64,000 nt of DNA, taken from the IMG/VR virus record IMGVR_UViG_3300021963_005223, positions 17,273 through 81,272 of that record, one strand, 5' to 3'. Each line of letters opens with the position of its first letter. Positions within the stretch are counted from its first letter, which is position 1. Below are positions 16,927 to 52,949 of this stretch, in pieces. The position numbers and the translations under genes are program-made. Source of the stretch: a virus. The notes beneath the pieces were generated by a model that saw nothing but the letters and a program-made list of their open reading frames with translations, did no database searches and was not told where the DNA came from.

Positions 16927-17526
16927 TTAACCCATTTTTCTAAGTGAATCTGCCCAGATTGCATCTTTAGATGAACCCACAAATCTTTCAACTGGAAGCA
17001 ACATTGCAGTAGCCCAATCATTTGCAGGAATTTCCCTAAAGGGTGATCTTACATGATTTAACAGATAATGTTTAACGCATGGAATCGCTCCATTATAACG
17101 AGATACTCCATCTATAAGTGCCCAAGAATATTTGATTCTTGTCGTTTCGTTCATTTTATCGTTACTCTTAAAAATCATTAAACGATCTAGTAAACGAACA
17201 CGTAATTGGTATGGTAAATAATGCATATTTAAACCCAAGAATCCACCTTCTACTTTTCTAAACGGGAAAACTAGAGGGAACCTATCATAATACGGTAGAG
17301 TATCTTTTAGTTTTGGGTCATAAAAATACATATAAAGTTTCCCAGGAGTGATACTGGTCTTTAGTTGTGTCGTATCGCCCTGTAATACTTTAGGTGGTGT
17401 TATTCTCTGTTTGTTTAACAGTAGAACTTGTTGTTCAAACCAGCCACGAGACTTTTTAGCTGCAGTCTTGAGGTCGTATTGGTTTTTCTCAAATACGTCT
17501 TGTAATGTTGTTGGATTTTTAGCCAT
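16927..17526 (-). CDS. gp2: gp2 DNA end protector
   Basis: YFYDPKLKDTLPYYDRFPLV, GLNMHYLP, CVKHYL. Confidence 0.9.
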   Translation of the reverse strand: MAKNPTTLQDVFEKNQYDLKTAAKKSRGWFEQQVLLLNKQRITPPKVLQGDTTQLKTSITPGKLYMYFYDPKLKDTLPYYDRFPLVFPFRKVEGGFLGLNMHYLPYQLRVRLLDRLMIFKSNDKMNETTRIKYSWALIDGVSRYNGAIPCVKHYLLNHVRSPFREIPANDWATAMLLPVERFVGSSKDAIWADSLRKMG

Positions 17527-38204: not shown

Positions 38205-39377
38205 ATGGCGACACTCGTTTTAAGACAAACTAAGGGACTACCCCTTACCAACGCTGAAGTTGATGGGAACTTTACCAACTTAAATGATGAGTTGGCGACC
38301 AAACTTCCTTCCACCTCATACACTGCAGCTGACGTTTTAACAAAAATTAAGACTGTAGATGGAACAGGTTCTGGTTTAGACGCAGACCTTTTAGATGGTC
38401 TAAGCACTAGTTCAACCTTACCAGGAATTGTGGATAAAAGTTCTGTTGTGACTCGAGACACATCTGGTAATACTGCCCTAAACCAATTATCGCTTACTGG
38501 TGCATTATCTGGTACAACTGCTACATTTAGTGGTGGTGTTTCAGTTGGCTCAATCACTATAGCAGGTGGATCCATTCCAGTTTCTGCTGGTGGTACAGGA
38601 GCTACAACTGCTCAGAATGCAAGAATAAATTTAGGTTTGGTTTTAGATACAGACGTTCAAGCGTATAATTCAAATTTACAAGCATTATCTGCTGCTTCAC
38701 CAGCAGCAGATAGATTACCATATTATACTGGTGCTTCCACTGCAGCTTTAGCAACTTTCACTTCTTTCGGAAGAACTTTAGTTGCTTCTACTGACGTTTT
38801 TGCTGCAAGAACTAATCTTGGTTTAGTTTTGGGTACTGACGTACAACCTTTCTCAGCTGAACTTTCTTCTGTAGCTGGTTTGTCGACTACTGGTATAATT
38901 ATCAGAACTGGTGCTGGAACCAAAGCAACAAGAACTATTACAGGAACAGCTGGAGAAGTTGTTGTAAGTAATGGTGATGGTGTAGCTGGAAACCCAACAT
39001 TAAGTCTTGGTACAGGTATTGCAAAATTATCTGCAAATAACACCTTCGCTGGAACTAACACTTTCCAAGTAATTTATGCAACTGAAGTTAATACAACCTC
39101 AGACGAAAGACTGAAAGAGAACATCCAAACGCTAAATAATGCTGTGGATATTGTTAATAGTTTGCGTGGCGTAGCCTATATTAAGGGTGGCAAAGCAGAA
39201 CTTGGTTTGATAGCTCAAGAAGTTGAACAGGTTATCCCTCAAGTTGTTGGGACAGATATGTCTGGTTATAAAACCATCGCCTATGGAAATATGGTTAGTA
39301 TATTGGTCGAAGCTATCAAAGAACAACAAAAAACAATTAGAGAATTAACTACTCGTTTAGAGAAACTGGAGAAATAA
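38205..39377 (+). CDS. Tail fibre with C-terminal intramolecular chaperone (peptidase S74)
   Basis: [55 protein letters not shown]. Confidence 0.85.
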   Translation: MATLVLRQTKGLPLTNAEVDGNFTNLNDELATKLPSTSYTAADVLTKIKTVDGTGSGLDADLLDGLSTSSTLPGIVDKSSVVTRDTSGNTALNQLSLTGALSGTTATFSGGVSVGSITIAGGSIPVSAGGTGATTAQNARINLGLVLDTDVQAYNSNLQALSAASPAADRLPYYTGASTAALATFTSFGRTLVASTDVFAARTNLGLVLGTDVQPFSAELSSVAGLSTTGIIIRTGAGTKATRTITGTAGEVVVSNGDGVAGNPTLSLGTGIAKLSANNTFAGTNTFQVIYATEVNTTSDERLKENIQTLNNAVDIVNSLRGVAYIKGGKAELGLIAQEVEQVIPQVVGTDMSGYKTIAYGNMVSILVEAIKEQQKTIRELTTRLEKLEK

Positions 39378-39378
39378 T

Positions 39379-39759
39379 ATGGCAATTCATGCAGCAACTG
39401 GATTTAAAAGATCTGATGGAACAGATGTAGTAAACCTGTTCTGGAACTACTATGATGCAGGTAACAGAAACTATACTGAAGGTAATGGTAACTGCGGATG
39501 GAACTGTGCATGTAATAACTGTAATTCCAACTGTAACTGTAACTGCGGTAACTGCGACGCTGGAGATATTTCTATTAACGTAGCTACTACCGATAGACGT
39601 ATTAACATGTTCCGCAACACTGCTTATGCAGACGGTATCCGTCACGACAATCAAGATAACACTTTAGGTGGTTTCCAATGGTTCCGCACAAACTGTAACT
39701 GTAACTGTGCATGTAACTGTAATTGCGCTTGCGACTGTGCTTGTGCTTGTGCATGTTAA
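39379..39759 (+). CDS. Cys/Asn-rich protein (19 Cys); candidate radical-SAM substrate or fibre tip
   Basis: Two xC repeat tracts (8 and 11 Cys); GGAG SD; starts 1 nt after the fibre stop. Confidence 0.8.
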   Translation: MAIHAATGFKRSDGTDVVNLFWNYYDAGNRNYTEGNGNCGWNCACNNCNSNCNCNCGNCDAGDISINVATTDRRINMFRNTAYADGIRHDNQDNTLGGFQWFRTNCNCNCACNCNCACDCACACAC

Positions 39760-39773
39760 TGGAGACAGAATAA

Positions 39774-40703
39774 ATGTTTAAAATTATTAAAACTCAAATT
39801 ACAGCATCTTTAAAAGAAGGTTCTGAGATTGGTATAAATGCCAATTATAGAACAACAATGGGCTATAATTCTGAAGACAAAACAATTTCAGTAAAAGTAG
39901 AAAAATTAAACAGACCAGATTTGACTCGTGAAGAAAATTTGGAAGTAACATACACAGAAGTAGCTTCTAGAATATTTGGTTTAGAAGATTTTCCACAAAA
40001 TACTGATAACATAACTTGGTTCACTGAGTATGATGTTGAAGCAAATAAAATTTCAGATCCGATTGAGATTTGGGATTGGGTTGCTACATTACAACAAAAG
40101 ACTCCTCCTGCTCCAAATGTTCCATATACTATCGGTTCTTTACAAACAGACTTCGCAGCTCACTTTACGCCAAAAATACTTCCATTATTTCATTTAGGTT
40201 CTTTCAATAAATCAGTTGAAAATTTTGAAGGTTCATTGTTACAATTTTACGTAACAAATGCAGACCAAACTACATTGGCTCCACATGATACAATTTTAAC
40301 AGATCCAAATCTAGAAGTTAAAACTTCATTAGAAAAATCTCAGTGGAGTAGTATCAATATTTTACCTATGCTTTCATACAATTTACTAGACGCTAATGGA
40401 GATGTAGTTGAAGTTGAACAGACTAAGATGGTAACACCTCGTCACCAAAAAGTAACTTTACCTAAAGCTGATGAATATTCTGTTAGAATTAACTTCACTA
40501 AACCTGCATTTAAAAATATTTCCAATACATATAATGTTTCAGTGGTTAATGGCGGAATTAATAAAAATAGGATTGTAATTTCAGAAGGATCTTCTGTTGT
40601 TCTAGTTAATGCACGTGGACTAAATTCTGGAGACTTCGTTAAAGTTAAGCTAAATATTGGAAAGTATAATAGTTTCGGTGAATTCTGGATTAATATTCAG
40701 TAA
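39774..40703 (+). CDS. Hypothetical 309-aa protein of the radical SAM island
   Basis: GGAG SD; beta-rich C-terminus; no recognised family. Confidence 0.75.
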   Translation: MFKIIKTQITASLKEGSEIGINANYRTTMGYNSEDKTISVKVEKLNRPDLTREENLEVTYTEVASRIFGLEDFPQNTDNITWFTEYDVEANKISDPIEIWDWVATLQQKTPPAPNVPYTIGSLQTDFAAHFTPKILPLFHLGSFNKSVENFEGSLLQFYVTNADQTTLAPHDTILTDPNLEVKTSLEKSQWSSINILPMLSYNLLDANGDVVEVEQTKMVTPRHQKVTLPKADEYSVRINFTKPAFKNISNTYNVSVVNGGINKNRIVISEGSSVVLVNARGLNSGDFVKVKLNIGKYNSFGEFWINIQ

Positions 40704-40773
40704 ATTTGAACTAATAATTTTGAAATAAATACTCGATATCTTGTCGAGTATTTTAAATAATTTAAAGGTGAAT

Positions 40774-42249
40774 ATGAGTAAATATAGATTAATTCTACAG
40801 GGTTCTAATGATGTAAAAGAAGTTTTGGTTTATGATCCAATAACTTCTGAAATGGTTTGGGAAGAATCTGGGGAAAGACCATCCTTGCAGCATTTGGGTC
40901 AAGATATCGAATATAAAGTTACAGCATCAAAACAGTGGAAACCATTTAAGGTTACCAATCCACACGACCCAGATCTGCATGGTCGTAAATCCAAAAAGCC
41001 AACAACATTAAAAATTACCATGGGTCTTAAGTGCAATTTTAAGTGCACTTATTGTAACCAAGCTCATCAGCCACACGATCCAGTTGGTGGTCCAGAAGAT
41101 GCGGATGATTTAATCCAAAAAATCAAAACAAACTTTGAACTTGGAACTTATGACCCAGTAAGAATCGAATACTGGGGTGGAGAACCATTTGTTTATTGGA
41201 AAACTTTAAAACCACTATCTGAGAAATTGCGTAAAGTGTATCCAAAAGCACAGTTTACTATTGTTACCAATGGTTCTATGTTAGATCGAGAAAAAGTCGA
41301 CTGGCTAAACCAGATGGGATTCTCAGTAGGTATGTCTCATGATGGTCCATTGCATGCTCAAAATCGTGGACCAGATCCATTGGATGATCCAAAGATGCGT
41401 TTCGGTATCGCTTACGCATTAAAAACTATGGGTCAAATGCGTTTTTCTTTTAACGCAGTTTTAACAAGAGAAAATGTTTCTTTAGCTGCAGTAAGAAACT
41501 TTATTCTTGATAAAATTAACCAAAGACATCCAGATTACCCTGATCAACCTGGTATTGATCAGCGAGAAATTCATGTTACCACTGAAGAATTGCTGTTACC
41601 GTATGACGATGATGGAATGAAACATTCATTGGTTACTCCAGATGAAAAGAAGATGATTCTTCATAACCTTTTCTGGGAAACAATTAATCAAAGAAATGAG
41701 TTTAGTTGGACTGTGCATAGTAAAATTAAAAACTTTTTTGACAGTTTGATTAATCAAAGACCTGCTGAGGCTCTTGGTCAAAAATGCGGTATGGATAGAG
41801 AAGACAATATTGCGATTGACATGAAAGGTAATGTAACCACTTGCCAAAATACTTCTTCTTTGACTAAACACCATATTGGTAACATTGAAGATTTTGATAA
41901 TATTCGTTTAACTACTTCATACCACTGGAGTACTAGAAGTGAGTGTCCAAGTTGCCCAGTAGTTCAATTATGTCAAGGTGCTTGTTTATTCTTAGAAGAC
42001 AAGTATTGGGAACAAGCGTGTGAAAACTTGTTCTATTATAACTTGGCGATGCTGGCTTCTTCTCTGTTTATACTTACAGGAGGTCTTGTACTAGTAGAAG
42101 TACAAGGAGAAAAGATAAGAAACGAAGGAATCACTTCGATACCAGTTATTGATATTAATTTTGTCAAATCTGATGGTAAAGAAACTTCCTGGAAAGTTCG
42201 TAAACCAATCGGTATTCCAGTTGTAACAGTTCCAGTTGGCTTGCAGTAA
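40774..42249 (+). CDS. Radical SAM / SPASM-domain enzyme
   Basis: CNFKCTYC (CxxxCxxC), WGGEP, TNG, SHDG; C...GNVTTC and CPSCPVVQLCQGAC...C auxiliary-cluster motifs. Confidence 0.93.
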   Translation: MSKYRLILQGSNDVKEVLVYDPITSEMVWEESGERPSLQHLGQDIEYKVTASKQWKPFKVTNPHDPDLHGRKSKKPTTLKITMGLKCNFKCTYCNQAHQPHDPVGGPEDADDLIQKIKTNFELGTYDPVRIEYWGGEPFVYWKTLKPLSEKLRKVYPKAQFTIVTNGSMLDREKVDWLNQMGFSVGMSHDGPLHAQNRGPDPLDDPKMRFGIAYALKTMGQMRFSFNAVLTRENVSLAAVRNFILDKINQRHPDYPDQPGIDQREIHVTTEELLLPYDDDGMKHSLVTPDEKKMILHNLFWETINQRNEFSWTVHSKIKNFFDSLINQRPAEALGQKCGMDREDNIAIDMKGNVTTCQNTSSLTKHHIGNIEDFDNIRLTTSYHWSTRSECPSCPVVQLCQGACLFLEDKYWEQACENLFYYNLAMLASSLFILTGGLVLVEVQGEKIRNEGITSIPVIDINFVKSDGKETSWKVRKPIGIPVVTVPVGLQ

Positions 42250-42250
42250 T

Positions 42251-42589
42251 ATGTCTTTTTTGAAGTGCAAAATCTGGCTGGTTGAGCAATATCCAAGATA
42301 TGGGTCTAATTATAATTTGTTCCCAATATCTGATATTATAGATTATGATTCTGATAATACATTTTATGACTATAAAGAAGATAAATCCCAGCATTTTATA
42401 AATATGATGGTTCCAGAATTTGAAATTTATGCAACAGAAGAACAGATTGAAATTTTAAATAAATATACTGAAGAGATTATCAGTAAAAAGATTCCGATAC
42501 TTAGAAATGTGCAAAAGGGTGATGTGGAGTATTGGATGATAGATACTACATTTTTAGACTATCATCTTAAAACAAAAAATATCCAATAG
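42251..42589 (+). CDS. Hypothetical protein
   Basis: ATG 1 nt after the rSAM stop. Confidence 0.6.
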   Translation: MSFLKCKIWLVEQYPRYGSNYNLFPISDIIDYDSDNTFYDYKEDKSQHFINMMVPEFEIYATEEQIEILNKYTEEIISKKIPILRNVQKGDVEYWMIDTTFLDYHLKTKNIQ

Positions 42590-42598
42590 GAGAAAAAA

Positions 42599-43546
42599 AT
42601 GAATGCAAAACATGTTAAATGGGTCATTGCACATGAACCTATCGGCTTGTTTCTTAAAGTAGCGGATCGTTTCGCTACAGAAGTAAACGAGAAGACTGGT
42701 GGAATGTTCAATATTGAAGTTTTATCATTGTCAGATTATTCTGCAAAATATAACGATGGCAAAAAGATCACTAAAAATGAGTTAATGACTTTAGTTGATT
42801 CTGGTGCTATTGAAATGAGCCACATCTATACTACTTGGTTAGCTGATTATAATAAAGATCTACATGCTTTAGATCTACCTTTCTTATTCCGTGACCACGA
42901 TCACGCTGATGCAGTTCTAGAAGGTGAAATTGGTACTGAGTTGTTAGCTGGTGTATCTAAGAATTCTAATATTCACGCTATGTCTTTCACTTACTCTGGT
43001 GGTTATCGTGTTGTTCCAGCTAACTTCCGTGCTGATACTGTAGAAGCATGGAGAGGTCAAGCTGTTCGCACTTCACGTTCTCCAGTAGCTGTTGAGACAT
43101 TTAAGTTACTAGGTGCTGAGCCAAAAGAGCACATCGCTCTAGAAGAAATGAATGAATATGCAGATAAAGGTGAAATTGCTGCTGGTGAATCAACTTACGT
43201 TCGCATTTTCCCACTAGATCAGTATAAATCTTTTAAAGTTGTTAATGACACTGCTCATAGCTTGTTCTTAACTTCTATTATTGTTAACAAAGACTTTATG
43301 GCTCAGTTTGACGAAGAAACTCGAGAGATTCTAGCTACTGCTGCATTTAATGCTGCTCGTGTAGAGCGTCGTGAATCTGTAGCTGACATTCCTAACATCT
43401 TGGCTGAATGTCAAGAAAAAGGTGTTGAAGTTGTTCGTATGTCTACTGAAGAACAGAAGAAGTTCCAAGAAGTTACTTCTGCTGTTTATGAAAAGTTTGC
43501 AGACTATTTCACTCCAGGATTAGTGCAGAAAATTAAGTTACAATAA
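42599..43546 (+). CDS. DctP-like TRAP substrate-binding protein lacking a signal peptide
   Basis: FATEVNEKTGG, GAIEMS, LDLPFLFRDHDHADAVLEGEIG, GQAVRT, FKLLGAEP. Confidence 0.85.
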   Translation: MNAKHVKWVIAHEPIGLFLKVADRFATEVNEKTGGMFNIEVLSLSDYSAKYNDGKKITKNELMTLVDSGAIEMSHIYTTWLADYNKDLHALDLPFLFRDHDHADAVLEGEIGTELLAGVSKNSNIHAMSFTYSGGYRVVPANFRADTVEAWRGQAVRTSRSPVAVETFKLLGAEPKEHIALEEMNEYADKGEIAAGESTYVRIFPLDQYKSFKVVNDTAHSLFLTSIIVNKDFMAQFDEETREILATAAFNAARVERRESVADIPNILAECQEKGVEVVRMSTEEQKKFQEVTSAVYEKFADYFTPGLVQKIKLQ

Positions 43547-43612: not shown

Positions 43613-44665
43613 ATGACTATGAATAAAGAATGTTTATATTATAATTGCTATAATGTTCCAGAAGTAATACAAGCTGGAGATAAAAGTATTGAACCTTATC
43701 TATCACCAGATTATTCAGATAAAGTTTTCCAGTTTTATAGAAAATATAAAATGGATTTGACTAATGTAGTATGTGATAGAATGGATATCCTTCCACATTA
43801 TATTAACATAAAAAAGAATCAATTTCCACTACCAAAAATTGAGCCAGATTTTAATATGTCTTTTGCTGAGTGCGTTGAAAAACGAGCAAAAGAAATTTTG
43901 GCACTCAATAAACCAATAACGGTAGTTTGGAGCGGTGGTATTGATAGTACACTTGTAATATTTTCACTGCTTCAATTTTGCAATGACCCATCACAAATTA
44001 CTGTTTATGGAACTTATAACTCTATTGTAGAGTCTGGTGATGTATTTGAAAAATATATCCTGCCAAGGGGTGTCAAATATCAGTTTGCAGTATCATCTAG
44101 AAAATACTTTAAAGATGATACACAAATCTATATCTCTGGTTTTATGGGTAATCAATTATTTGGACCAGTTGATGATTTTTCATATTCAAAAGCTACATTG
44201 TTTCATCACCATCTTAGAGGTAATGGTGATATTGAAGATTCTTACGAAACTGTGTTGACTGAAGAGATGCACGAGTTTTTATTACCTGCACTTAAAGCCA
44301 GTCCAAAGAAAATAGAAACTGTTAGAGATTTACGCTGGTTTGGTATTTTTATGTTAGATTGGCACCAGTCATATTATGATATTTTAATCAAAACAAAAAA
44401 TTATGATAAAGTTTATCATTTTTTTGATGATGCTGATATGCAAAAATATTCTATGACAACAAAAGAGCCATACACAAAAGTAAAGGGAAACCCTCTGACC
44501 CATCGCTGGGTCATGAGGGAATTAATTGAAGAGTGGGGGAAGTGCTCTCACTATGCTTGGAACAAACCAAAGAGTATATCAAACTTGGCCAATAGAGCTG
44601 CTGACTGGTATTTTATAATGCCAGATCATAGTTTGATTACTCCAAACAATATTAAATTTAATTAG
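43613..44665 (+). CDS. Asparagine-synthetase-like N-type ATP pyrophosphatase (no glutaminase domain)
   Basis: WSGGIDS PP-loop; SGFMGNQLFG resembles the AsnB SGxGxDELFG motif. Confidence 0.7.
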   Translation: MTMNKECLYYNCYNVPEVIQAGDKSIEPYLSPDYSDKVFQFYRKYKMDLTNVVCDRMDILPHYINIKKNQFPLPKIEPDFNMSFAECVEKRAKEILALNKPITVVWSGGIDSTLVIFSLLQFCNDPSQITVYGTYNSIVESGDVFEKYILPRGVKYQFAVSSRKYFKDDTQIYISGFMGNQLFGPVDDFSYSKATLFHHHLRGNGDIEDSYETVLTEEMHEFLLPALKASPKKIETVRDLRWFGIFMLDWHQSYYDILIKTKNYDKVYHFFDDADMQKYSMTTKEPYTKVKGNPLTHRWVMRELIEEWGKCSHYAWNKPKSISNLANRAADWYFIMPDHSLITPNNIKFN

Positions 44666-45291
44666 TAATTAACAAACCCAACATAAACATTTAAGAATAC
44701 TTGTGCTTGGTCTGATAAATTAGTTTCAACGTAGCGTTGCAAATATCCTGGAGTGACAACAATTTCACCAACACGAGCACGAATTCCATAGTTTGTTGCA
44801 ACTAAACCATTAGAAACCAGTTGGCGAATTGTTTGGACTCCACCTCTTGTATCAGCGAAATATGTGTTTGGTGGGAACTGTCCTGTATGCAAAACGAATG
44901 TTAAAATTAGAGGAACGTGTTCATAGCAATGTAATGGTACATGCTCTTGTGGCTGTTGGAAAAATACGCTAGAACCAAGGATCTCGGGCAATCTCTTTAG
45001 ATCTTGATTTTCTTTATCTTCAAATTCTTCTAATTGCTTGCAAGTACTATATACGAACCCTCTAAATTTTTCTACTAGTGGGTTGTCAATACCCATAATA
45101 TTTACATTCCCAGTTTCATTATTATGCTGGTTGTAAATAGCTAAAAATTCATTGAGTTCTTCTTCATTTAAATTAAAAGAAAAACAGCGCAAAGGTGTTG
45201 GGAAAAGTGATTTTTCGAATGTTTTTGTCACTTCAATAGAAGTTTCTTGACTTGTAGAAACTTCAGTCTGGGGTTGTTGATTTTCTTGCAT
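44662..45291 (-). CDS. Degenerate 2OG-Fe(II) oxygenase-like protein (TIGR02466-like)
   Basis: LFPTP, FADTR, GEIVVTPGYLQRYVETN skeleton; GGAG SD; TATAAATA upstream. Confidence 0.6.
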   Translation of the reverse strand: MQENQQPQTEVSTSQETSIEVTKTFEKSLFPTPLRCFSFNLNEEELNEFLAIYNQHNNETGNVNIMGIDNPLVEKFRGFVYSTCKQLEEFEDKENQDLKRLPEILGSSVFFQQPQEHVPLHCYEHVPLILTFVLHTGQFPPNTYFADTRGGVQTIRQLVSNGLVATNYGIRARVGEIVVTPGYLQRYVETNLSDQAQVFLNVYVGFVNY

Positions 45292-45990: not shown

Positions 45991-48927
45991 ATGGCATCTA
46001 TAATCAGAATTAAACGCTCGTCTACAAACGGAAATCCAGCAACGCTGGGTGCTGGTGAACTAGCATACTCTGCCTTAGCAGGAACAGTATCGAATGGTGG
46101 TGATCGCCTATACATAGGTATGGGTACAGAAACCTCAGGTAATGCTGCGAACCACGTAATTATCGGTGGTAAGTATTTTACCGATATGATGGATCATACT
46201 CCAGGAACTTTAACTGCAAGTTCTGCACTTATTACTGATTCCAGCAATAAAATTGATGTAATTAACGTAGGAAATTTAACTCTTACTGGTAGTACAAATA
46301 CTATTAGTTCCACTGATACTAATGGTAATATTTTATTAGACCCAGCTGGCACTGGCTATGTTCAGGTCGTTGGTACTAATGGTTTTATCCTTCCTGTTGG
46401 TACGACTGCTCAAGCAGGTCCAGCAATCCAAGGTACTGTTCGTTACAATACTGATAAATCTTCTTTCGAAGGTTACAACGGAACTAACTGGGGTTCACTT
46501 GGTGGTGTTAAATCTGTTGATGGTTTAACATATATTATCGCTGAAACTTCTCCAGGTGCTTCTGACGATACATTAAGATTCTACGCAAGTAATAACGTCA
46601 CTGCTGTTCAAGTAGCTACATTAGATCAAACTAAATTAGCAGTTCTACAAACTACTGCTTCAACTAGCACTACTACTGGTGCGTTGACCGTAGCTGGTGG
46701 CGTTGGTATCGCAGGTAATTTATATGTTGGTGGCAACCTTAGCATCGCAGGTACTGATTTAAATATCGGTAGCGTACAATTCAATAATGGTTTAACATTA
46801 TCTGGATCTACAACTGCTGCAACTGAATACTTCACAATTACCGATGGCGCAGCAACTCCAGTAACAAAATTCCAAGTAGATACTTCAAGTGGTAATACCA
46901 CTATCGCTGGAACATTGAGTGTTACTGGTGCTACAACTATTACTGGCGCAGCTACTCTAAGTTCTACTCTTGGTGTTACTGGTGCTACAACATTAAGTTC
47001 TACTCTTGGTGTTACTGGCGACCTTTCTGTAAACACTAATAAGTTTACTGTTGCTTCTGCGACTGGTAATACTTCTGTTGCTGGAACATTGGGTGTTACT
47101 GGTGCTACAACATTAAGTTCTACTCTTGGTGTTACTGGAGCAACTACTCTAAGTTCTACTCTTGGTGTTACTGGTGCTACAACTCTATCGAGCACATTAG
47201 ATGTAACTGGCAACTTAAACGTAAACACTAACAAATTCAGTGTTATCGCATCATCTGGTAATACTTCTATTGCTGGTACTTTAGGTGTAACAGGTAATAC
47301 AACTCTATCTGGTACTCTTGGTGTAACTGGTGCTACTACTCTTTCTTCTACAGCTAACGTAGTTGGAGATTTCTCAGTTGCTACCAACAAGTTTACTGTT
47401 GCAGCTTTAACAGGTAATACAGCTGTAGCTGGCACTTTAGGTGTTACTGGCGATACAACTTTAACAGGCGACTTGGCAGTTAATGGTGGTGATATTACTA
47501 CCACCGCTACAACATTTAACTTAATTAATACTACTGCGACTACTTTAAATATTGGTGGCGCAGCGACTTCTCTAACACTTGGTGCTACAAGTGGTACTGC
47601 TACTATCCGCAATACTACTGTTGCGATTACCAATAATGCTACAGTTGGTGGCACTTTAGGTGTAACAGGTAATACTACTCTATCAGGTACTCTTGGCGTA
47701 ACTGGTGCTGCAACGATTACTGGTATTATTAATGCCAACGGAGGTATTACTGCAACTGGTTCTGTTAGTGTAACTGCTGGTGGAACAAATACAAATATTA
47801 ACCTTGTCCCACAAGGTACTGGTACTGTTGACGTTGCAAGTAAGCGTATTACCAACGTTGCTGAACCAACTCAAGCTACAGACGCTGCAACTAAGAACTA
47901 TGTTGATGCTGTTAAGACTGGTTTAGATCCAAAGGATTCAGTTCGTGTCGCTACAACTGCTGCATTAACTGTTACTTACTCTAACGGATCTTCTGGTGTC
48001 GGAGCAACATTAACCAATGCTGGAACACAAGCTGCAATAACTATCGACTCTATTGTACTAGCAGTCGGAGATCGTGTCTTAGTTAAGAACCAAGCAACTG
48101 CTTCCCAGAATGGTATCTATACTGTAACCAACGTTGGTTCAGCTTCTACAAACTGGGTATTAACTCGTTCTATTGACGCTGAAACATCAACAGAACTTAC
48201 TGGTGGTGCATTTACTTTCGTTGAAGAAGGTACTACTAATGGTGATAATGGTTTCGTTTGTACTACAGACGGAGCAGTTACAATTGGTACTACATCAATT
48301 AACTGGGTACAGTTCTCTGGTGCTGGTCAAATTATTGCTGGTGCTGGTTTAACTAAGACTGGTAACCAAATTGACGTTGTAGGTACTGCAAACCGAATTG
48401 ATGCTAACGCAGATAATATTGACATTTCTGCAAACTATGTTGGTCAAGCGTCTATTACAACTCTGGGTACTATTAGTACTGGTACTTGGCAGGGTACTAT
48501 TGTTGCTGGTCAATATGGTGGTACTGGTGTAAACAACTCAGGTAAGACAATTACTCTTGGTGGTAACTTAACTACTAGTGGTGCGTTTAACACTACTCTT
48601 ACTGCAACTGGCACAACTTCTGTCACTCTTCCAACTTCTGGAACTCTTGCGACATTAGCTGGTACTGAAACATTTACCAACAAGACTTTAACATCACCAA
48701 CAATCAACTCTGGTGCTATTTCTGGAACATTCACTGGAAATGCAACATTGTCAGGTGTAATCACTTTATCAAACACAACTGATGCAACCAGCACTACTGC
48801 TGCTGGAGTTGTTATGTCTGGTGGCTTGGCAGTTGCTAAAGCAGTATATGTTGGTACAAACATTACTGGTGCGGGTGCTTCAACTTCGACTCTTGATGGA
48901 TTTAACATCGATGGTGGAACTTACTAA
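45991..48927 (+). CDS. Tail fibre protein (Thr/Gly-rich, 978 aa)
   Basis: IIRIKRS...GELAYS head, GVTGATTLSSTL repeats, DRVLVKNQ..QNGIY, ends IDGGTY. Confidence 0.85.
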   Translation: MASIIRIKRSSTNGNPATLGAGELAYSALAGTVSNGGDRLYIGMGTETSGNAANHVIIGGKYFTDMMDHTPGTLTASSALITDSSNKIDVINVGNLTLTGSTNTISSTDTNGNILLDPAGTGYVQVVGTNGFILPVGTTAQAGPAIQGTVRYNTDKSSFEGYNGTNWGSLGGVKSVDGLTYIIAETSPGASDDTLRFYASNNVTAVQVATLDQTKLAVLQTTASTSTTTGALTVAGGVGIAGNLYVGGNLSIAGTDLNIGSVQFNNGLTLSGSTTAATEYFTITDGAATPVTKFQVDTSSGNTTIAGTLSVTGATTITGAATLSSTLGVTGATTLSSTLGVTGDLSVNTNKFTVASATGNTSVAGTLGVTGATTLSSTLGVTGATTLSSTLGVTGATTLSSTLDVTGNLNVNTNKFSVIASSGNTSIAGTLGVTGNTTLSGTLGVTGATTLSSTANVVGDFSVATNKFTVAALTGNTAVAGTLGVTGDTTLTGDLAVNGGDITTTATTFNLINTTATTLNIGGAATSLTLGATSGTATIRNTTVAITNNATVGGTLGVTGNTTLSGTLGVTGAATITGIINANGGITATGSVSVTAGGTNTNINLVPQGTGTVDVASKRITNVAEPTQATDAATKNYVDAVKTGLDPKDSVRVATTAALTVTYSNGSSGVGATLTNAGTQAAITIDSIVLAVGDRVLVKNQATASQNGIYTVTNVGSASTNWVLTRSIDAETSTELTGGAFTFVEEGTTNGDNGFVCTTDGAVTIGTTSINWVQFSGAGQIIAGAGLTKTGNQIDVVGTANRIDANADNIDISANYVGQASITTLGTISTGTWQGTIVAGQYGGTGVNNSGKTITLGGNLTTSGAFNTTLTATGTTSVTLPTSGTLATLAGTETFTNKTLTSPTINSGAISGTFTGNATLSGVITLSNTTDATSTTAAGVVMSGGLAVAKAVYVGTNITGAGASTSTLDGFNIDGGTY
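46912..47350 (+). repeat. 36-bp coding tandem repeats (GVTGATTLSSTL)
   Basis: Repeated ggtgttactggtgctacaacattaagttctactctt units; boundaries approximate. Confidence 0.85.
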
Positions 48928-48938
48928 ATAGTATCATA

Positions 48939-48970
48939 AGGGTAGTTGTTACTACCCTATTACCTTTTTT
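48939..48970 (+). terminator. Hairpin, possible terminator after the first long fibre gene
   Basis: AGGGTAGT-tgtt-ACTACCCT then attacc and a T run; CTAAATA at 48924-48930. Confidence 0.5.
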
Positions 48971-48980
48971 AAGGATTTGA

Positions 48981-50954
48981 ATGGCTAATAAAGTCTTACT
49001 GAAGAAGTCTTCAGTTGCGGCAAAAATTCCGCTATCAACTGATTTGGATTACGGTGAATTGGCATTAAACTATGCTGATGGTAAACTGTATTTCAAAAAT
49101 TCGTCAAATGCAATTCAATCCTTCACAAACGACTCTTCGCTCGTTACCTTAACTGGTACACAAACCCTCACCAACAAAACCCTCACATCACCAACTTTAA
49201 CTGGTGGTACGATCAACAACACCATAATTGGTGGTTCAACTCCAGCTGCAGGTTCTTTCACCACTTTAACAGCGAGTAGTACAATAACTGCTTCTGGAAT
49301 TGTTAGTGGTTCAGAATTAACTTCAACTCTGGCAAGTGGTGACGAGGGTGGACAGATAAATTTAGCAAAGCCACCAAACGCCACGATAGCTGCTGGAGTC
49401 ACGATTGATGTATGGCAAAATAGATTAAGATTTTTTGTACAAGGTGGTGATGCTCGTGGCGCATATATTGACTTATCAGCTGCAAGTGCAGGTGTAGGCA
49501 CTAATCTTATATCAACATCTGGCGGTGGTACATTAACTTCGATTACTGCTGGTACTGGTTTAACTGGTGGAACAATTACAACTTCTGGTACTATCGCAAT
49601 CGATACTTCCGTTGTTGCGACATTAACTGGTACTCAGACATTAACCAATAAGACTCACGATAATACTAATAGTTATGTCACTAAATCGTCGTTGTTTACA
49701 CTTCAAGACGCAACTGATACAACTAAACAAGCAGTATTTTCTTTGTCTGGTATTACAACTGCCACAACTAGAACATATACTCTTCCAAATGCAAGCACTA
49801 CATTAATTGGTGCAGCTGGTGGAACTTTTAGTGGTGGTGTAACTTTTTCTAGCGCAACGAATTATTTTGGTAACTCTACTGCTACAGGAACAACAGAACT
49901 TGCTAGTGGAGCAACAGTTTCGGCTTCTACTAAAACAGTTAATATTGGTACTGGTGGTCTTACTGGTTCAACAACTACAATGGCTATCGGTTCCACATTT
50001 GGAACTACTGTAACAGCAAATGGAACTTGGACATATTCAACTCCACTAGCAAACTCAAACTTAGCAAATTCTGCAATAACTATTAATGGTACTTCCATCA
50101 GTTTAGGTAGTTCTGGATCAATTACTACTACTGCTATTACTGAAGGAACGAACCTTTACTATACTAATGCAAGAGCAAGAGCAGCTCAATCAGCTGGTAC
50201 TGGTATTTCTTATAATAGTACTACTGGTGTTATTAGCACTGTTCAAGATATTGCGACAACTGCTTCACCAACATTCGCTGGATTATCAACTACTGGAACT
50301 TTAACAGTTGGTGGCGATTTAGTTGTTAACGGAACAACTACTACTGTTAACTCTACTACAATAACAGTTGACGATAAAAATATTGAGTTGGGATCTGTAG
50401 CTACCCCAACAGATATTACTGCCAATGGTGGTGGTATTACATTAAAAGGTAGCACTGACAAGACCTTTAACTGGGTTTCTTCTACTGCATCTTGGACTTC
50501 TTCAGAGAATTTAGATTTAGCATCTGGTAAAACATTTAAAATTAATGGTTCAGATGTATTGACATCTAGTCAAGTATTGGGTAAAACTCTACCTTCTGGA
50601 ACTGTTGTTGGTACTACAGATTCACAGACGCTTACAAATAAAACACTAACAAGCCCAACGATAAATAATGCTACAGTAAATAATTTAATAATCACTGGAA
50701 CTTTAACAGCAGGTGGTGGAGTAGGAACTGCTGGACAAATTCTTCAGTCTACTGGAACTGGTGTTGAGTGGACGAGCGCAGCTGGCTCTGATCCAGCTGA
50801 TATAATGTATTTTAATATATTAAGTAGAGTTGGTGAAGTACAAGCAAAGCTAACTTCGCTTTTGCAGAATTATTTAGATTTCGACAATCAAACATTTAGA
50901 ACTCCAGTTGGATTTGTTGACACGAGAACACAAACTATTAATGTAACAGGATAA
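48981..50954 (+). CDS. Tail fibre protein (657 aa)
   Basis: LKKSSV...GELALNYADGKLYFK head; TQTLTNKTL repeats. Confidence 0.82.
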   Translation: MANKVLLKKSSVAAKIPLSTDLDYGELALNYADGKLYFKNSSNAIQSFTNDSSLVTLTGTQTLTNKTLTSPTLTGGTINNTIIGGSTPAAGSFTTLTASSTITASGIVSGSELTSTLASGDEGGQINLAKPPNATIAAGVTIDVWQNRLRFFVQGGDARGAYIDLSAASAGVGTNLISTSGGGTLTSITAGTGLTGGTITTSGTIAIDTSVVATLTGTQTLTNKTHDNTNSYVTKSSLFTLQDATDTTKQAVFSLSGITTATTRTYTLPNASTTLIGAAGGTFSGGVTFSSATNYFGNSTATGTTELASGATVSASTKTVNIGTGGLTGSTTTMAIGSTFGTTVTANGTWTYSTPLANSNLANSAITINGTSISLGSSGSITTTAITEGTNLYYTNARARAAQSAGTGISYNSTTGVISTVQDIATTASPTFAGLSTTGTLTVGGDLVVNGTTTTVNSTTITVDDKNIELGSVATPTDITANGGGITLKGSTDKTFNWVSSTASWTSSENLDLASGKTFKINGSDVLTSSQVLGKTLPSGTVVGTTDSQTLTNKTLTSPTINNATVNNLIITGTLTAGGGVGTAGQILQSTGTGVEWTSAAGSDPADIMYFNILSRVGEVQAKLTSLLQNYLDFDNQTFRTPVGFVDTRTQTINVTG

Positions 50955-50957
50955 ACC

Positions 50958-52949
50958 ATGGCAAATAGAATTCCTTTAATTATCGATTCAACATCGAAAC
51001 GAATAAAAGAATTACCTTCTGGAGATAACTTAGATCTTACAGGAAATGGTATTTCTGCAGTTCGTGATATTATTCCAGAAACAGATGTAACATATAACTT
51101 AGGTTCTGCAACTAAGAGATGGAACTCTCTTTATGTTTCTGGAAACACAATTTTTGTTGGTACTGCGAGCATCTCAGTTAACGCAAGCAACATTCAAATT
51201 GGTATCGGTGCGAATACTGCAACTATTCCTGTAGCTTCTTCCCAAACTTTTGCCACTTTAAGTGGGTCAGAAACATTAACAAACAAGACAATCAATTTAG
51301 CAAATAATACACTAACTGCAACTAGTGCACAAATTCTTGCTGCTGTTTCTGACGAAACTGGTTCTGGTGTTTTGGTATTTAATACTAGCCCTACTCTTGT
51401 AACTCCAATTCTTGGAACTCCGCAGTCTGTTACATTGACAAACGCTACTGGCTTACCAGTTTCAACTGGTATCTCTGGTTTAGGTACTGGCGTCGCTACT
51501 TTTTTAGCTACACCATCTTCTGCAAATTTAGCTGCAGCATTAACTGATGAAACTGGTTCTGGCTCTGTAGTATTCAGCGCATCGCCAACATTTACTGGTA
51601 CTGCAAATTTTGCAGCGATTGGAACAACTGGGAATGCAACAGTTGGTGGTAACTTAACAGTTACTGGTGATTTCATTGTCAATGGAACTACAACTACTGT
51701 TAACTCTACTACAATAACAGTTGATGATATTAATATCGAATTAGGTTCTGTAGCTACACCAACTGATATTACAGCCAATGGTGGTGGTATTACTCTTAAG
51801 GGTACTACAGATAAGACTATCAGTTGGTCTTCAATCGGTTGGACTTCTTCTGAAGATTTTAACCTTGCTACGGGTAAATCGTTTGAAATTAATGGAACTT
51901 CTGTTTTATCATCCACAACATTAGGTTCTGGTGTTATTAATTCTTCGTTAACATCGGTTGGTACTATTGCTACTGGTACTTGGCAAGGTACTATCGTTAG
52001 TCCAACTTATGGTGGCACTGGTGTTAACAACGGAACTAAGACTATCACTCTTGGTGGTAACTTAACAACTTCTGGTGCATTTAATACTACATTAACTGCA
52101 ACAGCCAATACTACAGTAACACTACCAACTACTGGAACTCTTTCTACTTTAGCTGGTACAGAAACACTAACAAATAAAACAATCGCTGCTGGTTCAAATA
52201 CTATTAGCGGATTAACCAACGCAAACCTTTCTGGTTCTGCTGGTATCACTAATGCAAACTTAGCGAATAGTTCTATTACTGTTGGCAATACTGCTATTTC
52301 TCTGGGTGCTTCAAGTACTACACTTGCTGGTTTAACTTCTGTTACATCAACATCTTTTGTTGGTGCTTTAACTGGTAATGCTTCTACTGCAACAACTCTT
52401 GCAACAGCAAGAGCAATCAATGGCGTAAACTTTGATGGTAGTGCTGCAATTACAATCACTGCCAATACCACTAACGGATTAACAATTGGTACTGGTCTTT
52501 CTGGAACTTCATTCAATGGTTCTTCAGCTGTCACTATAGCAATCGATTCTACTGTTGCTACTTTAACTGGTACTCAAACTCTTACCAACAAATCATTGGG
52601 TGGATTTGATCAAAAGACTGGTTCTACTAGCATCGCCAATAATGCAGTTGCTCAAGCATCAGTTGCAACAATTACTCAGACTGCAGTCGATACATTCGCA
52701 GCAGCGACTTATCGTTCAGCTAAGTATGTTATTCAAATTACACAAGGATCAAATTACCAAGTTGAAGAAATTCTAGTTATACATAACGGAACAACCACTA
52801 CATTAACCAATTATGCTGTTATGAACACCAATGGCATTCTAGGAACTTTTGCAACAGATATTAGTGCAGGTAATGTGCGTTTATTGGTAACAATGAATTC
52901 TGCAACAGCTGCAACAATAAATATAACAAGAACGACAATAGTTGTATAA
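50958..52949 (+). CDS. Tail fibre protein (663 aa)
   Basis: YNLGSATKRW, DETGSG repeats, C-terminal YRSAKYVIQ domain. Confidence 0.82.
   Translation: MANRIPLIIDSTSKRIKELPSGDNLDLTGNGISAVRDIIPETDVTYNLGSATKRWNSLYVSGNTIFVGTASISVNASNIQIGIGANTATIPVASSQTFATLSGSETLTNKTINLANNTLTATSAQILAAVSDETGSGVLVFNTSPTLVTPILGTPQSVTLTNATGLPVSTGISGLGTGVATFLATPSSANLAAALTDETGSGSVVFSASPTFTGTANFAAIGTTGNATVGGNLTVTGDFIVNGTTTTVNSTTITVDDINIELGSVATPTDITANGGGITLKGTTDKTISWSSIGWTSSEDFNLATGKSFEINGTSVLSSTTLGSGVINSSLTSVGTIATGTWQGTIVSPTYGGTGVNNGTKTITLGGNLTTSGAFNTTLTATANTTVTLPTTGTLSTLAGTETLTNKTIAAGSNTISGLTNANLSGSAGITNANLANSSITVGNTAISLGASSTTLAGLTSVTSTSFVGALTGNASTATTLATARAINGVNFDGSAAITITANTTNGLTIGTGLSGTSFNGSSAVTIAIDSTVATLTGTQTLTNKSLGGFDQKTGSTSIANNAVAQASVATITQTAVDTFAAATYRSAKYVIQITQGSNYQVEEILVIHNGTTTTLTNYAVMNTNGILGTFATDISAGNVRLLVTMNSATAATINITRTTIVV

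Follow-up and report, generated by a model that had tools for sequence, protein, structure and literature searches.

Fibre tips decide which bacteria a phage infects and are engineered for diagnostic use and for phage therapy. Chaperones and self-cleavage are known to take part in the maturation of fibres. In T2-type phages the small protein gp38, encoded by the gene directly behind the fibre, caps the tip of gp37 and provides the host-contacting surface. The gp37 needle of T4 has periodic His-x-His iron sites near its tip and binds metal without the involvement of an enzyme. A different group of systems is formed by the ranthipeptides and sactipeptides (PapB/freyrasin, NxxcB/NxxcA, and CteB/SCIFF), in which SPASM maturases act on the Cys-rich cores of short exported leader-core peptides, the acceptors used by these enzymes including the beta-carbons of Asp and Asn. 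Whole proteins can also be modified. In Methanococcus voltae the SPASM radical SAM enzyme CrpC, which holds three [4Fe-4S] clusters, is encoded beside the large Cys-rich repeat protein CrpA and installs several thioether (ranthionine) cross-links on this protein as opposed to a short peptide (Dieter et al., 2026, PMC13692751). Similarly, the radical SAM enzyme QhpD makes multiple intra-protein cross-links in QhpC, a small Cys-containing structural subunit, prior to assembly and in complex with a partner protein (PMC7876137).

Here we describe a phage locus that shares features with each of these systems. It lies in the window, by which we mean the whole 64,000-nucleotide stretch analyzed (positions 17,273 to 81,272 of IMG/VR record IMGVR_UViG_3300021963_005223), and it places a small protein with a ladder of Asn-Cys units between a tail fibre gene and the gene of a radical SAM/SPASM enzyme. 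CrpC/CrpA is archaeal and cellular, is unconnected with any virion or fibre, and has 17-residue repeats with C-x-x-Q/D motifs, whereas the window has an (Asn-Cys)n ladder and its enzyme scores far under the cut-off of the CrpC family, TIGR04463. QhpD/QhpC differs in having only three Cys-to-Asp/Glu links, situated in an enzyme subunit, with no repeat ladder and no phage context. Unlike the short substrates of the ranthipeptide and sactipeptide systems, the tract here ends fibres of up to 730 aa or small tip modules, and no RRE, protease, or exporter was detected in the window cassette. The analogy to gp38 is one of position, with no relation of sequence or family, and gp38 has glycine-rich motifs and hypervariable loops but no Cys ladder and no modifying enzyme. 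The likeness to T4 gp37 is that a periodic motif near the fibre tip could align side chains along the trimer axis, these being His in gp37 and Cys here. Modification of Cys-rich proteins by SPASM radical SAM enzymes is therefore already known, and what would be new is its application to virion fibre tips; full-text literature searches returned no description of phage radical SAM enzymes with Cys-ladder fibre ends or of radical SAM chemistry in fibre maturation. The reading that we favor, and which we consider somewhat better than an even call, is that a fibre-tip module is encoded by a gene of its own and has its Asn-Cys ladders modified by the radical SAM enzyme, probably with thioether cross-links.

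The Asn-Cys Ladder Protein

The candidate substrate, and putative separately encoded fibre-tip module, is a protein of 126 aa (39379..39759, plus strand) whose ORF translation contains 19 Cys and 24 Asn. Its Cys share of 15.1% compares with 0.72% across the 54 long ORFs of the window, and hence the richness is not due to chance. The count of 19 Cys given in a preliminary description of this DNA was correct (19 of 126 residues, 8 in tract 1 and 11 in a C-terminal tract of strict xC period), and all of them are confined to these two tracts. The N-terminal part is Cys-free (residues 1-37; 39379..39489, plus strand) and carries the motif ATGF[KR]xSDGTD..LF, as derived from the homologue alignment. 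Tract 1 (residues 38-59; 39490..39555, plus strand) reads NCGWNCACNNCNSNCNCNCGNC and has conserved columns, and it is 4 residues shorter in four of the aligned homologues. The C-terminal tail (residues 105-126; 39691..39756, plus strand), which is preceded by an Arg103 that is invariant among the aligned homologues, opens with an invariant NCNCNC and continues as eleven Xaa-Cys dipeptides without interruption up to the stop codon.

The gene is real and under purifying selection. The family alignment of 20 sequences has 30 invariant columns, and in 13 DNA-level homologues all 15 alignable Cys columns are conserved while being written with a mixture of TGT and TGC; in the window itself 14 Cys codons are TGT and 5 are TGC. 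With mixed codons at conserved Cys columns and a median pairwise dN/dS of 0.16, the earlier proposal that selection acts on the protein is upheld. The gene was also present at 12 of 13 loci that were located via the neighboring enzyme. Natural length variation of the AACTGT-like hexanucleotide repeat was looked for in gene-spanning contigs from three DNA runs, with no indel found. In a single 452-nt contig of an RNA-library run, which has 5 mismatches, 39562 is connected directly to 39690, so that 127 nt between the Cys tracts are skipped; the junction is out of frame, and the contig probably comes from a relative or from misassembly at the AACTGT-like repeats. Scans for sigma-70 promoters, terminators, and the T4 late-promoter box TATAAATA were uninformative.

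The family is found in a large protein collection as ten clusters at 90% identity, none of which is named. The 126-aa protein had no match among Pfam, PHROG, or NCBIfam families and no usable match in the ESM Atlas, its family profile had no match among PDB sequences, and neither it nor the neighboring 309-aa protein gave a tblastn match among 50,697 phage records. When the family profile was compared with 1.84 billion representative proteins only five matches were obtained, three of them being the family itself and the other two a 2912-aa protein with 14 matched stretches and one protein sharing the N-terminal motif only. AF2 modeling from the 20-sequence alignment gave no confident fold (pLDDT 42, pTM 0.18). 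In P0012, an unrelated protein of 199 aa, the N-terminal motif occurs in three tandem copies (xTGFRxSxGxDLxxLF) that are followed by an unrelated Cys-free domain. Given this threefold tandem occurrence, the N-terminal part of the 126-aa protein has more the look of a repeated structural element than of a RiPP leader. It had been described as Cys-free and leader- or anchor-like; the absence of Cys stands, and a role as leader found no support.

Fused and Split Forms of the Putative Fibre Tip

The ORF of the ladder protein starts 1 nt past the stop codon of a tail fibre gene (390 aa; 38205..39377, plus strand), with a GGAG present for each of the two genes. The fibre matches many PHROG tail-fibre families and ends in a predicted S74 intramolecular chaperone (PF13884, Peptidase_S74; E 3.7e-13, 50 bits against a cut-off of 22, residues 299-348). 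The order of fibre and 126-aa gene is retained in 14 of 15 close relatives. The gp38-like gene position that had been proposed is borne out by both the spacing and the conserved order. There is no homology to gp38 or another named adhesin, with no match obtained in Pfam, PHROG, NCBIfam, or the PDB. Residues 2-267 of the fibre form a shaft with 54% identity to the fibre of a distant locus, L080 (BLASTP 1e-75), leaving ~30 residues between the conserved shaft, which reaches residue 267, and the S74 chaperone. This gap fits the earlier remark that the fibre has no obvious receptor-binding head before S74.

The L080 locus retains the whole cassette frame of the window's lineage. Its fibre has no S74 domain and is followed by no separate small gene; it runs into a Cys-containing tip domain that ends in NCNCVCNC. 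At another locus, L087, the gene of an S74 fibre precedes a tandem array of three small proteins of 92-115 aa with terminal NC tracts, and these align to the tip domain of L080. Tract-ended tip modules thus occur in two forms, in one of which they are fused to a shaft, while in the other they have genes of their own downstream of an S74 fibre; the arrangement in the window corresponds to the latter. Longer, fused homologues of the 126-aa family itself were searched for and none was found, which is weak evidence, so the argument from fused and split forms rests on analogous tip modules. The suggestion that the 126-aa protein is a tip protein is supported in part, since Asn-Cys tracts normally end tail fibres and L080 has a fused tip. 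We regard it as probable that the 126-aa protein is a fibre or virion component.

Sets of two to four tandem NC-tract paralogues (75-170 aa) occur upstream of the radical SAM gene and look like alternative fibre tips. Such small tract-ended paralogues are seen at L087 (3573-4504) as well as at L118, L150, L181, L197, L131, L158, L184, and L189.

The position behind the fibre gene would also suit an assembly factor that is absent from the virion, namely a chaperone or scaffold of fibre trimerisation like T4 gp38 or gp57A, which may act with the 309-aa partner and then be discarded. The C-terminal domain of this partner resembles Ig-like domains, including those of pilus chaperones, at generic Z scores only. 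However, the fibre already has its own S74 chaperone, and most relatives carry the tract within the fibre chain itself, so that it stays in the product. This is the least probable of the explanations that we have weighed.

Anatomy of the Tract

The tract was characterized in a set of 158 distinct examples, which were filtered for an NCNC start so that the first two Xaa are always Asn. The third Xaa is Asn in 142 of the 158, and the overall composition of Xaa is 69% Asn, 16% Ala, and 9% Asp. Tracts are 4-11 units long, which puts the window's tail of 11 in the longest class, and 139 of 158 end no more than 8 residues from the C-terminus of the protein. Where further sequence lies behind the tract, it is a Hint self-cleaving domain that begins at the last Cys of the tract. 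For example, in gp028 of Achromobacter phage JWF the tract NCNCDCNCNCSC stands directly ahead of a Hint domain (PF05203, E 3e-12, from residue 308; L002, 3679-5130), and the same arrangement is found at L025, L036, L039, L119, L125, and L183. As the Hint domain starts at the last Cys, the mature protein would again end in a ladder. Hint cleavage would leave this ladder at the new C-terminus, possibly as a reactive thioester. Of the ten larger tract-bearing proteins compared with PHROG, seven match tail-fibre families via their shafts, and the tracts usually terminate genuine tail-fibre proteins.

These observations also bear on whether the ladder protein is a free RiPP, with an N-terminal leader and the tracts as a core that, once modified and cleaved off, would be set free to serve outside the virion as a bacteriocin, a signal, or a peptide that manipulates the host. 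In some loci small tract-ended ORFs (97-176 aa) lie 17-91 bp upstream of the radical SAM gene, and the tandem paralogue sets are reminiscent of RiPP clusters. Against this, the same tract terminates tail-fibre proteins of 300-730 aa, the genes are always within fibre modules, the cassette is without a protease or exporter gene, and the N-terminal motif recurs as a structural-looking repeat. We consider a released peptide very unlikely.

The Radical SAM/SPASM Enzyme

The second gene downstream of the 126-aa gene encodes a predicted radical SAM/SPASM enzyme of 502 aa when read from a TTG at 40741 (40741..42249, plus strand; PF04055, E 2e-10; phrog_1802, E 8e-63; TIGR04085 SPASM, 37.1 bits against a cut-off of 27). 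An ATG at 40774 (491 aa), from which the homologues align, is a more likely start than TTG 40741. The CX3CX2C motif corresponds to C98/C102/C105 and is invariant in 73 distinct homologues, and the SPASM region adds seven conserved Cys (349, 368, 402, 405, 411, 415, and 427) with the spacing C-x13-G-x4-C ... C-x2-C-x5-C-x3-C ... C. Exactly 10 Cys are conserved across the 73 homologues, and they make up the ligand set for a radical SAM cluster together with a pair of auxiliary clusters. With seven SPASM Cys, one auxiliary-cluster site would presumably stay open for a substrate thiolate, as reported for CteB. The 85-residue N-terminal extension had no match to PqqD/RRE families by sequence. In some loci a shorter second radical SAM protein (335-340 aa, PF04055) is encoded directly upstream of the SPASM enzyme (L020, 4981-5994; also L021, L027, L028, L049, L050, and L057).

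The nearest PDB sequences are TigE (8vpo, the top match), which is a cyclopropyl synthase, CteB (5wgg, second, E 3.9e-9), and anSME (4k36). Weak NCBIfam matches are almost all to maturases (PapB, anSME, nif11-type, HxsB, DynA, TIGR04463, QhpD, and SCIFF), with bit scores far under the respective cut-offs: 69.1 against 340 for PapB (NF047865), 61.6 against 349 for anSME (TIGR03942), 52.7 against 525 for the CrpC family (TIGR04463), 47.8 against 453 for QhpD (TIGR03906), and 41.9 against 425 for the SCIFF maturase (TIGR03974). With TigE as the top PDB match and all equivalog scores far below their cut-offs, the predicted enzyme class is clear, however, the reaction is not fixed by sequence similarity. 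The best family and PDB matches are peptide- or protein-modifying SPASM enzymes, and this counts in favor of a substrate-enzyme pair.

The same pair could then carry out other chemistry, such as the oxidation of Cys to formylglycine, epimerisation, or the formation of C-C cross-links or desaturation, with the 2OG-oxygenase-like and PP-loop enzymes altering Asn/Asp further. The top PDB sequence being the cyclopropyl synthase TigE agrees with this, as do the anSME match, the similarly weak scores of NCBIfam anSME, cyclophane-forming, and other maturases, and the presence in many loci of 2OG-oxygenase-like genes or the second shorter radical SAM gene. Conversely, the anSME/sulfatase motif C/S-x-P/A-x-R was looked for in the whole 126-aa sequence and is absent from it, both tracts included; a Cys content as extreme and invariant as that of the substrate speaks for sulfur as the atom that reacts, and in the literature examined thioethers are the sole experimentally shown SPASM reactions on Cys-rich proteins. 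We think other chemistry rather unlikely, and place thioether chemistry specifically a little short of even.

Co-occurrence of Enzyme and Tract

Homologues of the enzyme at ~40% identity are also encoded behind tail-fibre genes in two cultured phages, Ralstonia phage RSP15 and Achromobacter phage JWF, where the pair is ORF048/ORF045 and gp028/gp030, respectively, and a profile scan of IMG/VR yielded at least 570 stretches with relatives. For an enzyme-to-motif count we used the 60 retained IMG/VR loci in which the sequence ahead of the radical SAM gene spans 3.5 kb or more. A same-strand ORF with an NC-containing (Xaa-Cys)n tract was present at 58 of these 60 loci, compared with 6 of 2976 control ORFs from the same loci. 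Species-representative bacterial genomes contributed a further 214 stretches with relatives of the enzyme, with the tract at 50 of 55 loci; the stretches come mostly from freshwater and soil Alpha- and Betaproteobacteria (e.g., Limnohabitans, Ferrovibrio, Rhodospirillales) and are probably prophages or binned phage contigs.

The search was also run from motif to enzyme, using a DNA pattern for NCNCNC(xC)2 that gave 117 new IMG/VR loci. At 74 of these, the same radical SAM family is encoded downstream on the same strand at a distance of 17-5400 bp. A further 28 loci have no radical SAM gene and less than 4 kb of downstream sequence, and 15 have none despite at least 4 kb; of the latter, 13 are microsatellite-like ORFs of 14-65 aa, some in giant-virus bins. 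The radical SAM family and C-terminal (Asn-Cys)n tracts thus co-occur in both directions, and the pairing is found at fibre ends in hundreds of phages. The ladders of the 126-aa protein are very probably the substrate of the radical SAM enzyme.

This linkage weighs against a metal-thiolate tip, in which the Cys ladders would hold a row of metals or clusters and the radical SAM enzyme would act elsewhere or merely assist. C-x-C motifs are typical of metallothioneins, a beta-strand with the C-x-C period has every thiol on the same side, the apo monomer is not folded by AF2, and the tip of T4 gp37 binds iron via rows of HxH. Nevertheless, the near-obligate linkage to a SPASM radical SAM enzyme in three independent samples would be left without explanation, no match to metallothionein or metal-binding families was found, and the loci show no consistent linkage to genes for metal chaperones or transporters. 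A metal-loaded tip is unlikely in our judgment, and the idea raised earlier that the 126-aa protein is loaded with metal or Fe-S and possibly mimics a metal-uptake ligand found no support and is speculation.

Partner Genes of the Cassette

In the window's lineage the genes run from a VrlC-like giant protein through an 80-aa virion protein, the S74 fibre, the 126-aa protein, a 309-aa protein, and the radical SAM enzyme to a 117-aa protein, a DctP-like protein, and a PP-loop protein. The 309-aa protein (39774..40703, plus strand) is predicted to be beta-rich, is Cys-free, and is a distant member of a phage-only family (c2/c8/c65) that in most loci is encoded behind the tract-bearing gene. Its link to this family comes from an hhalign comparison of c8 with c2 (probability 94.8%, E 5e-8). 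Pairwise BLASTP against the neighbors in RSP15 and JWF was not significant, and the protein is tied to these neighbors only by profile-profile and structure comparison. The AF2 model (pLDDT 87.5, pTM 0.84) has its best BFVD match in a 271-aa phage protein (TM 0.61/0.69), while in the PDB Foldseek and VIA recover nothing beyond an Ig-like domain of generic kind at the C-terminus (best Z 8.9, TM ~0.2), which gives no indication of function. No family match was obtained for the 309-aa protein, and its ESM Atlas matches are weak and nameless.

Downstream of the enzyme, the 117-aa protein (cluster c9; 42236..42589, plus strand) is conserved with the cassette in the window's lineage and in L080. It is followed by a DctP-family solute-binding protein (c10; 42599..43546, plus strand; PF03480, E 5e-40), the gene of which is kept inside the radical SAM cassette in 17 loci, the distant L080 among them. 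This DctP-like protein begins MNAKHVKW, without a hydrophobic leader, and no dctQ or dctM gene is nearby. The PP-loop (SGGIDS) protein (350 aa, c11; 43613..44665, plus strand) has a faint asparagine synthetase score (TIGR01536, E 0.025) and no PDB relative, and it always accompanies the cassette in the window's lineage. As a matter of speculation, it could act on the Asn/Asp of the ladders. The convergent gene behind it encodes a 209-aa protein (c7; 44662..45291, minus strand) with a weak relation to c21/c3/c44 (hhalign c21 vs. c7, probability 71.6%, E 3.5e-5). Genes of c21/c3/c44 are 2OG-Fe(II)-oxygenase-like, with a PF13759 match under the cut-off, and elsewhere they lie between the substrate and the radical SAM gene. 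Many loci add such 2OG-oxygenase-like genes or the second shorter radical SAM gene.

Proposed Mechanism and Significance

Within the favored reading of a fibre-tip module with enzymatically modified ladders, the 126-aa gene would be translated together with the fibre, which is seen here only as tight gene packing. The radical SAM enzyme would then act on tracts initiated by NCNCNC, possibly with help from the beta-rich 309-aa partner. Most likely, a hydrogen would be abstracted from an acceptor, either the beta-carbon of Asn/Asp or an alpha-carbon, which would subsequently be joined to the Cys sulfur. The outcome would be a dense thioether ladder, formed within one chain or between the chains of the trimer. 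Judging from the fused and split architectures, the stapled module may take its place at the distal end of the 390-aa fibre after self-cleavage of S74, and the tip would in this way be rigid and resistant to reduction and protease when contacting the host.

The dominance of Asn/Asp at alternate positions fits, as we see it, beta-carbon acceptors of the PapB, NxxcB, and QhpD type, and we take NCNC to contain an N-x-x-C register like that of NxxcA. On the other hand, 16% of Xaa are Ala, which has no side-chain acceptor of the kind used by PapB- or NxxcB-type enzymes, and this speaks against the favored reading. The earlier suggestion of a cross-linked protein is partly sustained, in that it fits with the dedicated radical SAM/SPASM enzyme, of which the preliminary description made no mention. 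A more far-reaching proposal, which we offer tentatively and hold to be on balance doubtful, is that in many phage lineages a radical SAM/SPASM enzyme staples (Asn-Cys)n fibre ends via Cys-to-Asn/Asp thioethers, possibly joining three chains covalently. Virions would then have a post-translational modification of a new class, one that shapes or hardens the receptor-binding tip, with the 126-aa protein of the window as a detachable cap bearing the longest ladder known to date.

The pairing suggests that the host-contacting part of the virus carries a chemical modification that has not been described before. Should an enzyme indeed cross-link the ladders, such fibres could not be swapped or expressed in a foreign host unless the enzyme were supplied, and structure predictions of such tips would be wrong. 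Enzymology would also gain a large family of SPASM enzymes that act on whole proteins and are easy to mine (at least 570 IMG/VR stretches in addition to the 214 from bacterial genomes).

Phage Context

The VrlC-like neighbor has 45% identity to Synechococcus phage BUCT-ZZ01 and assigns the phage to the T4-like cyano- and pelagimyophages. The stretch was found in freshwater metagenomes of 12 studies dating from 2013-2025, and covering pieces from three DNA runs show no differences to it. In nature the phage is both abundant and stable. The locus is also covered by contigs of a single metatranscriptome library, such coverage not being proof of transcription. Further along the window, three successive fibre-like ORFs (978, 657, and 663 aa; 45991-52949, plus strand) contain internal repeats of the LGVTGATTLSST type, and the 657- and 663-aa ORFs have a near-identical segment in common.
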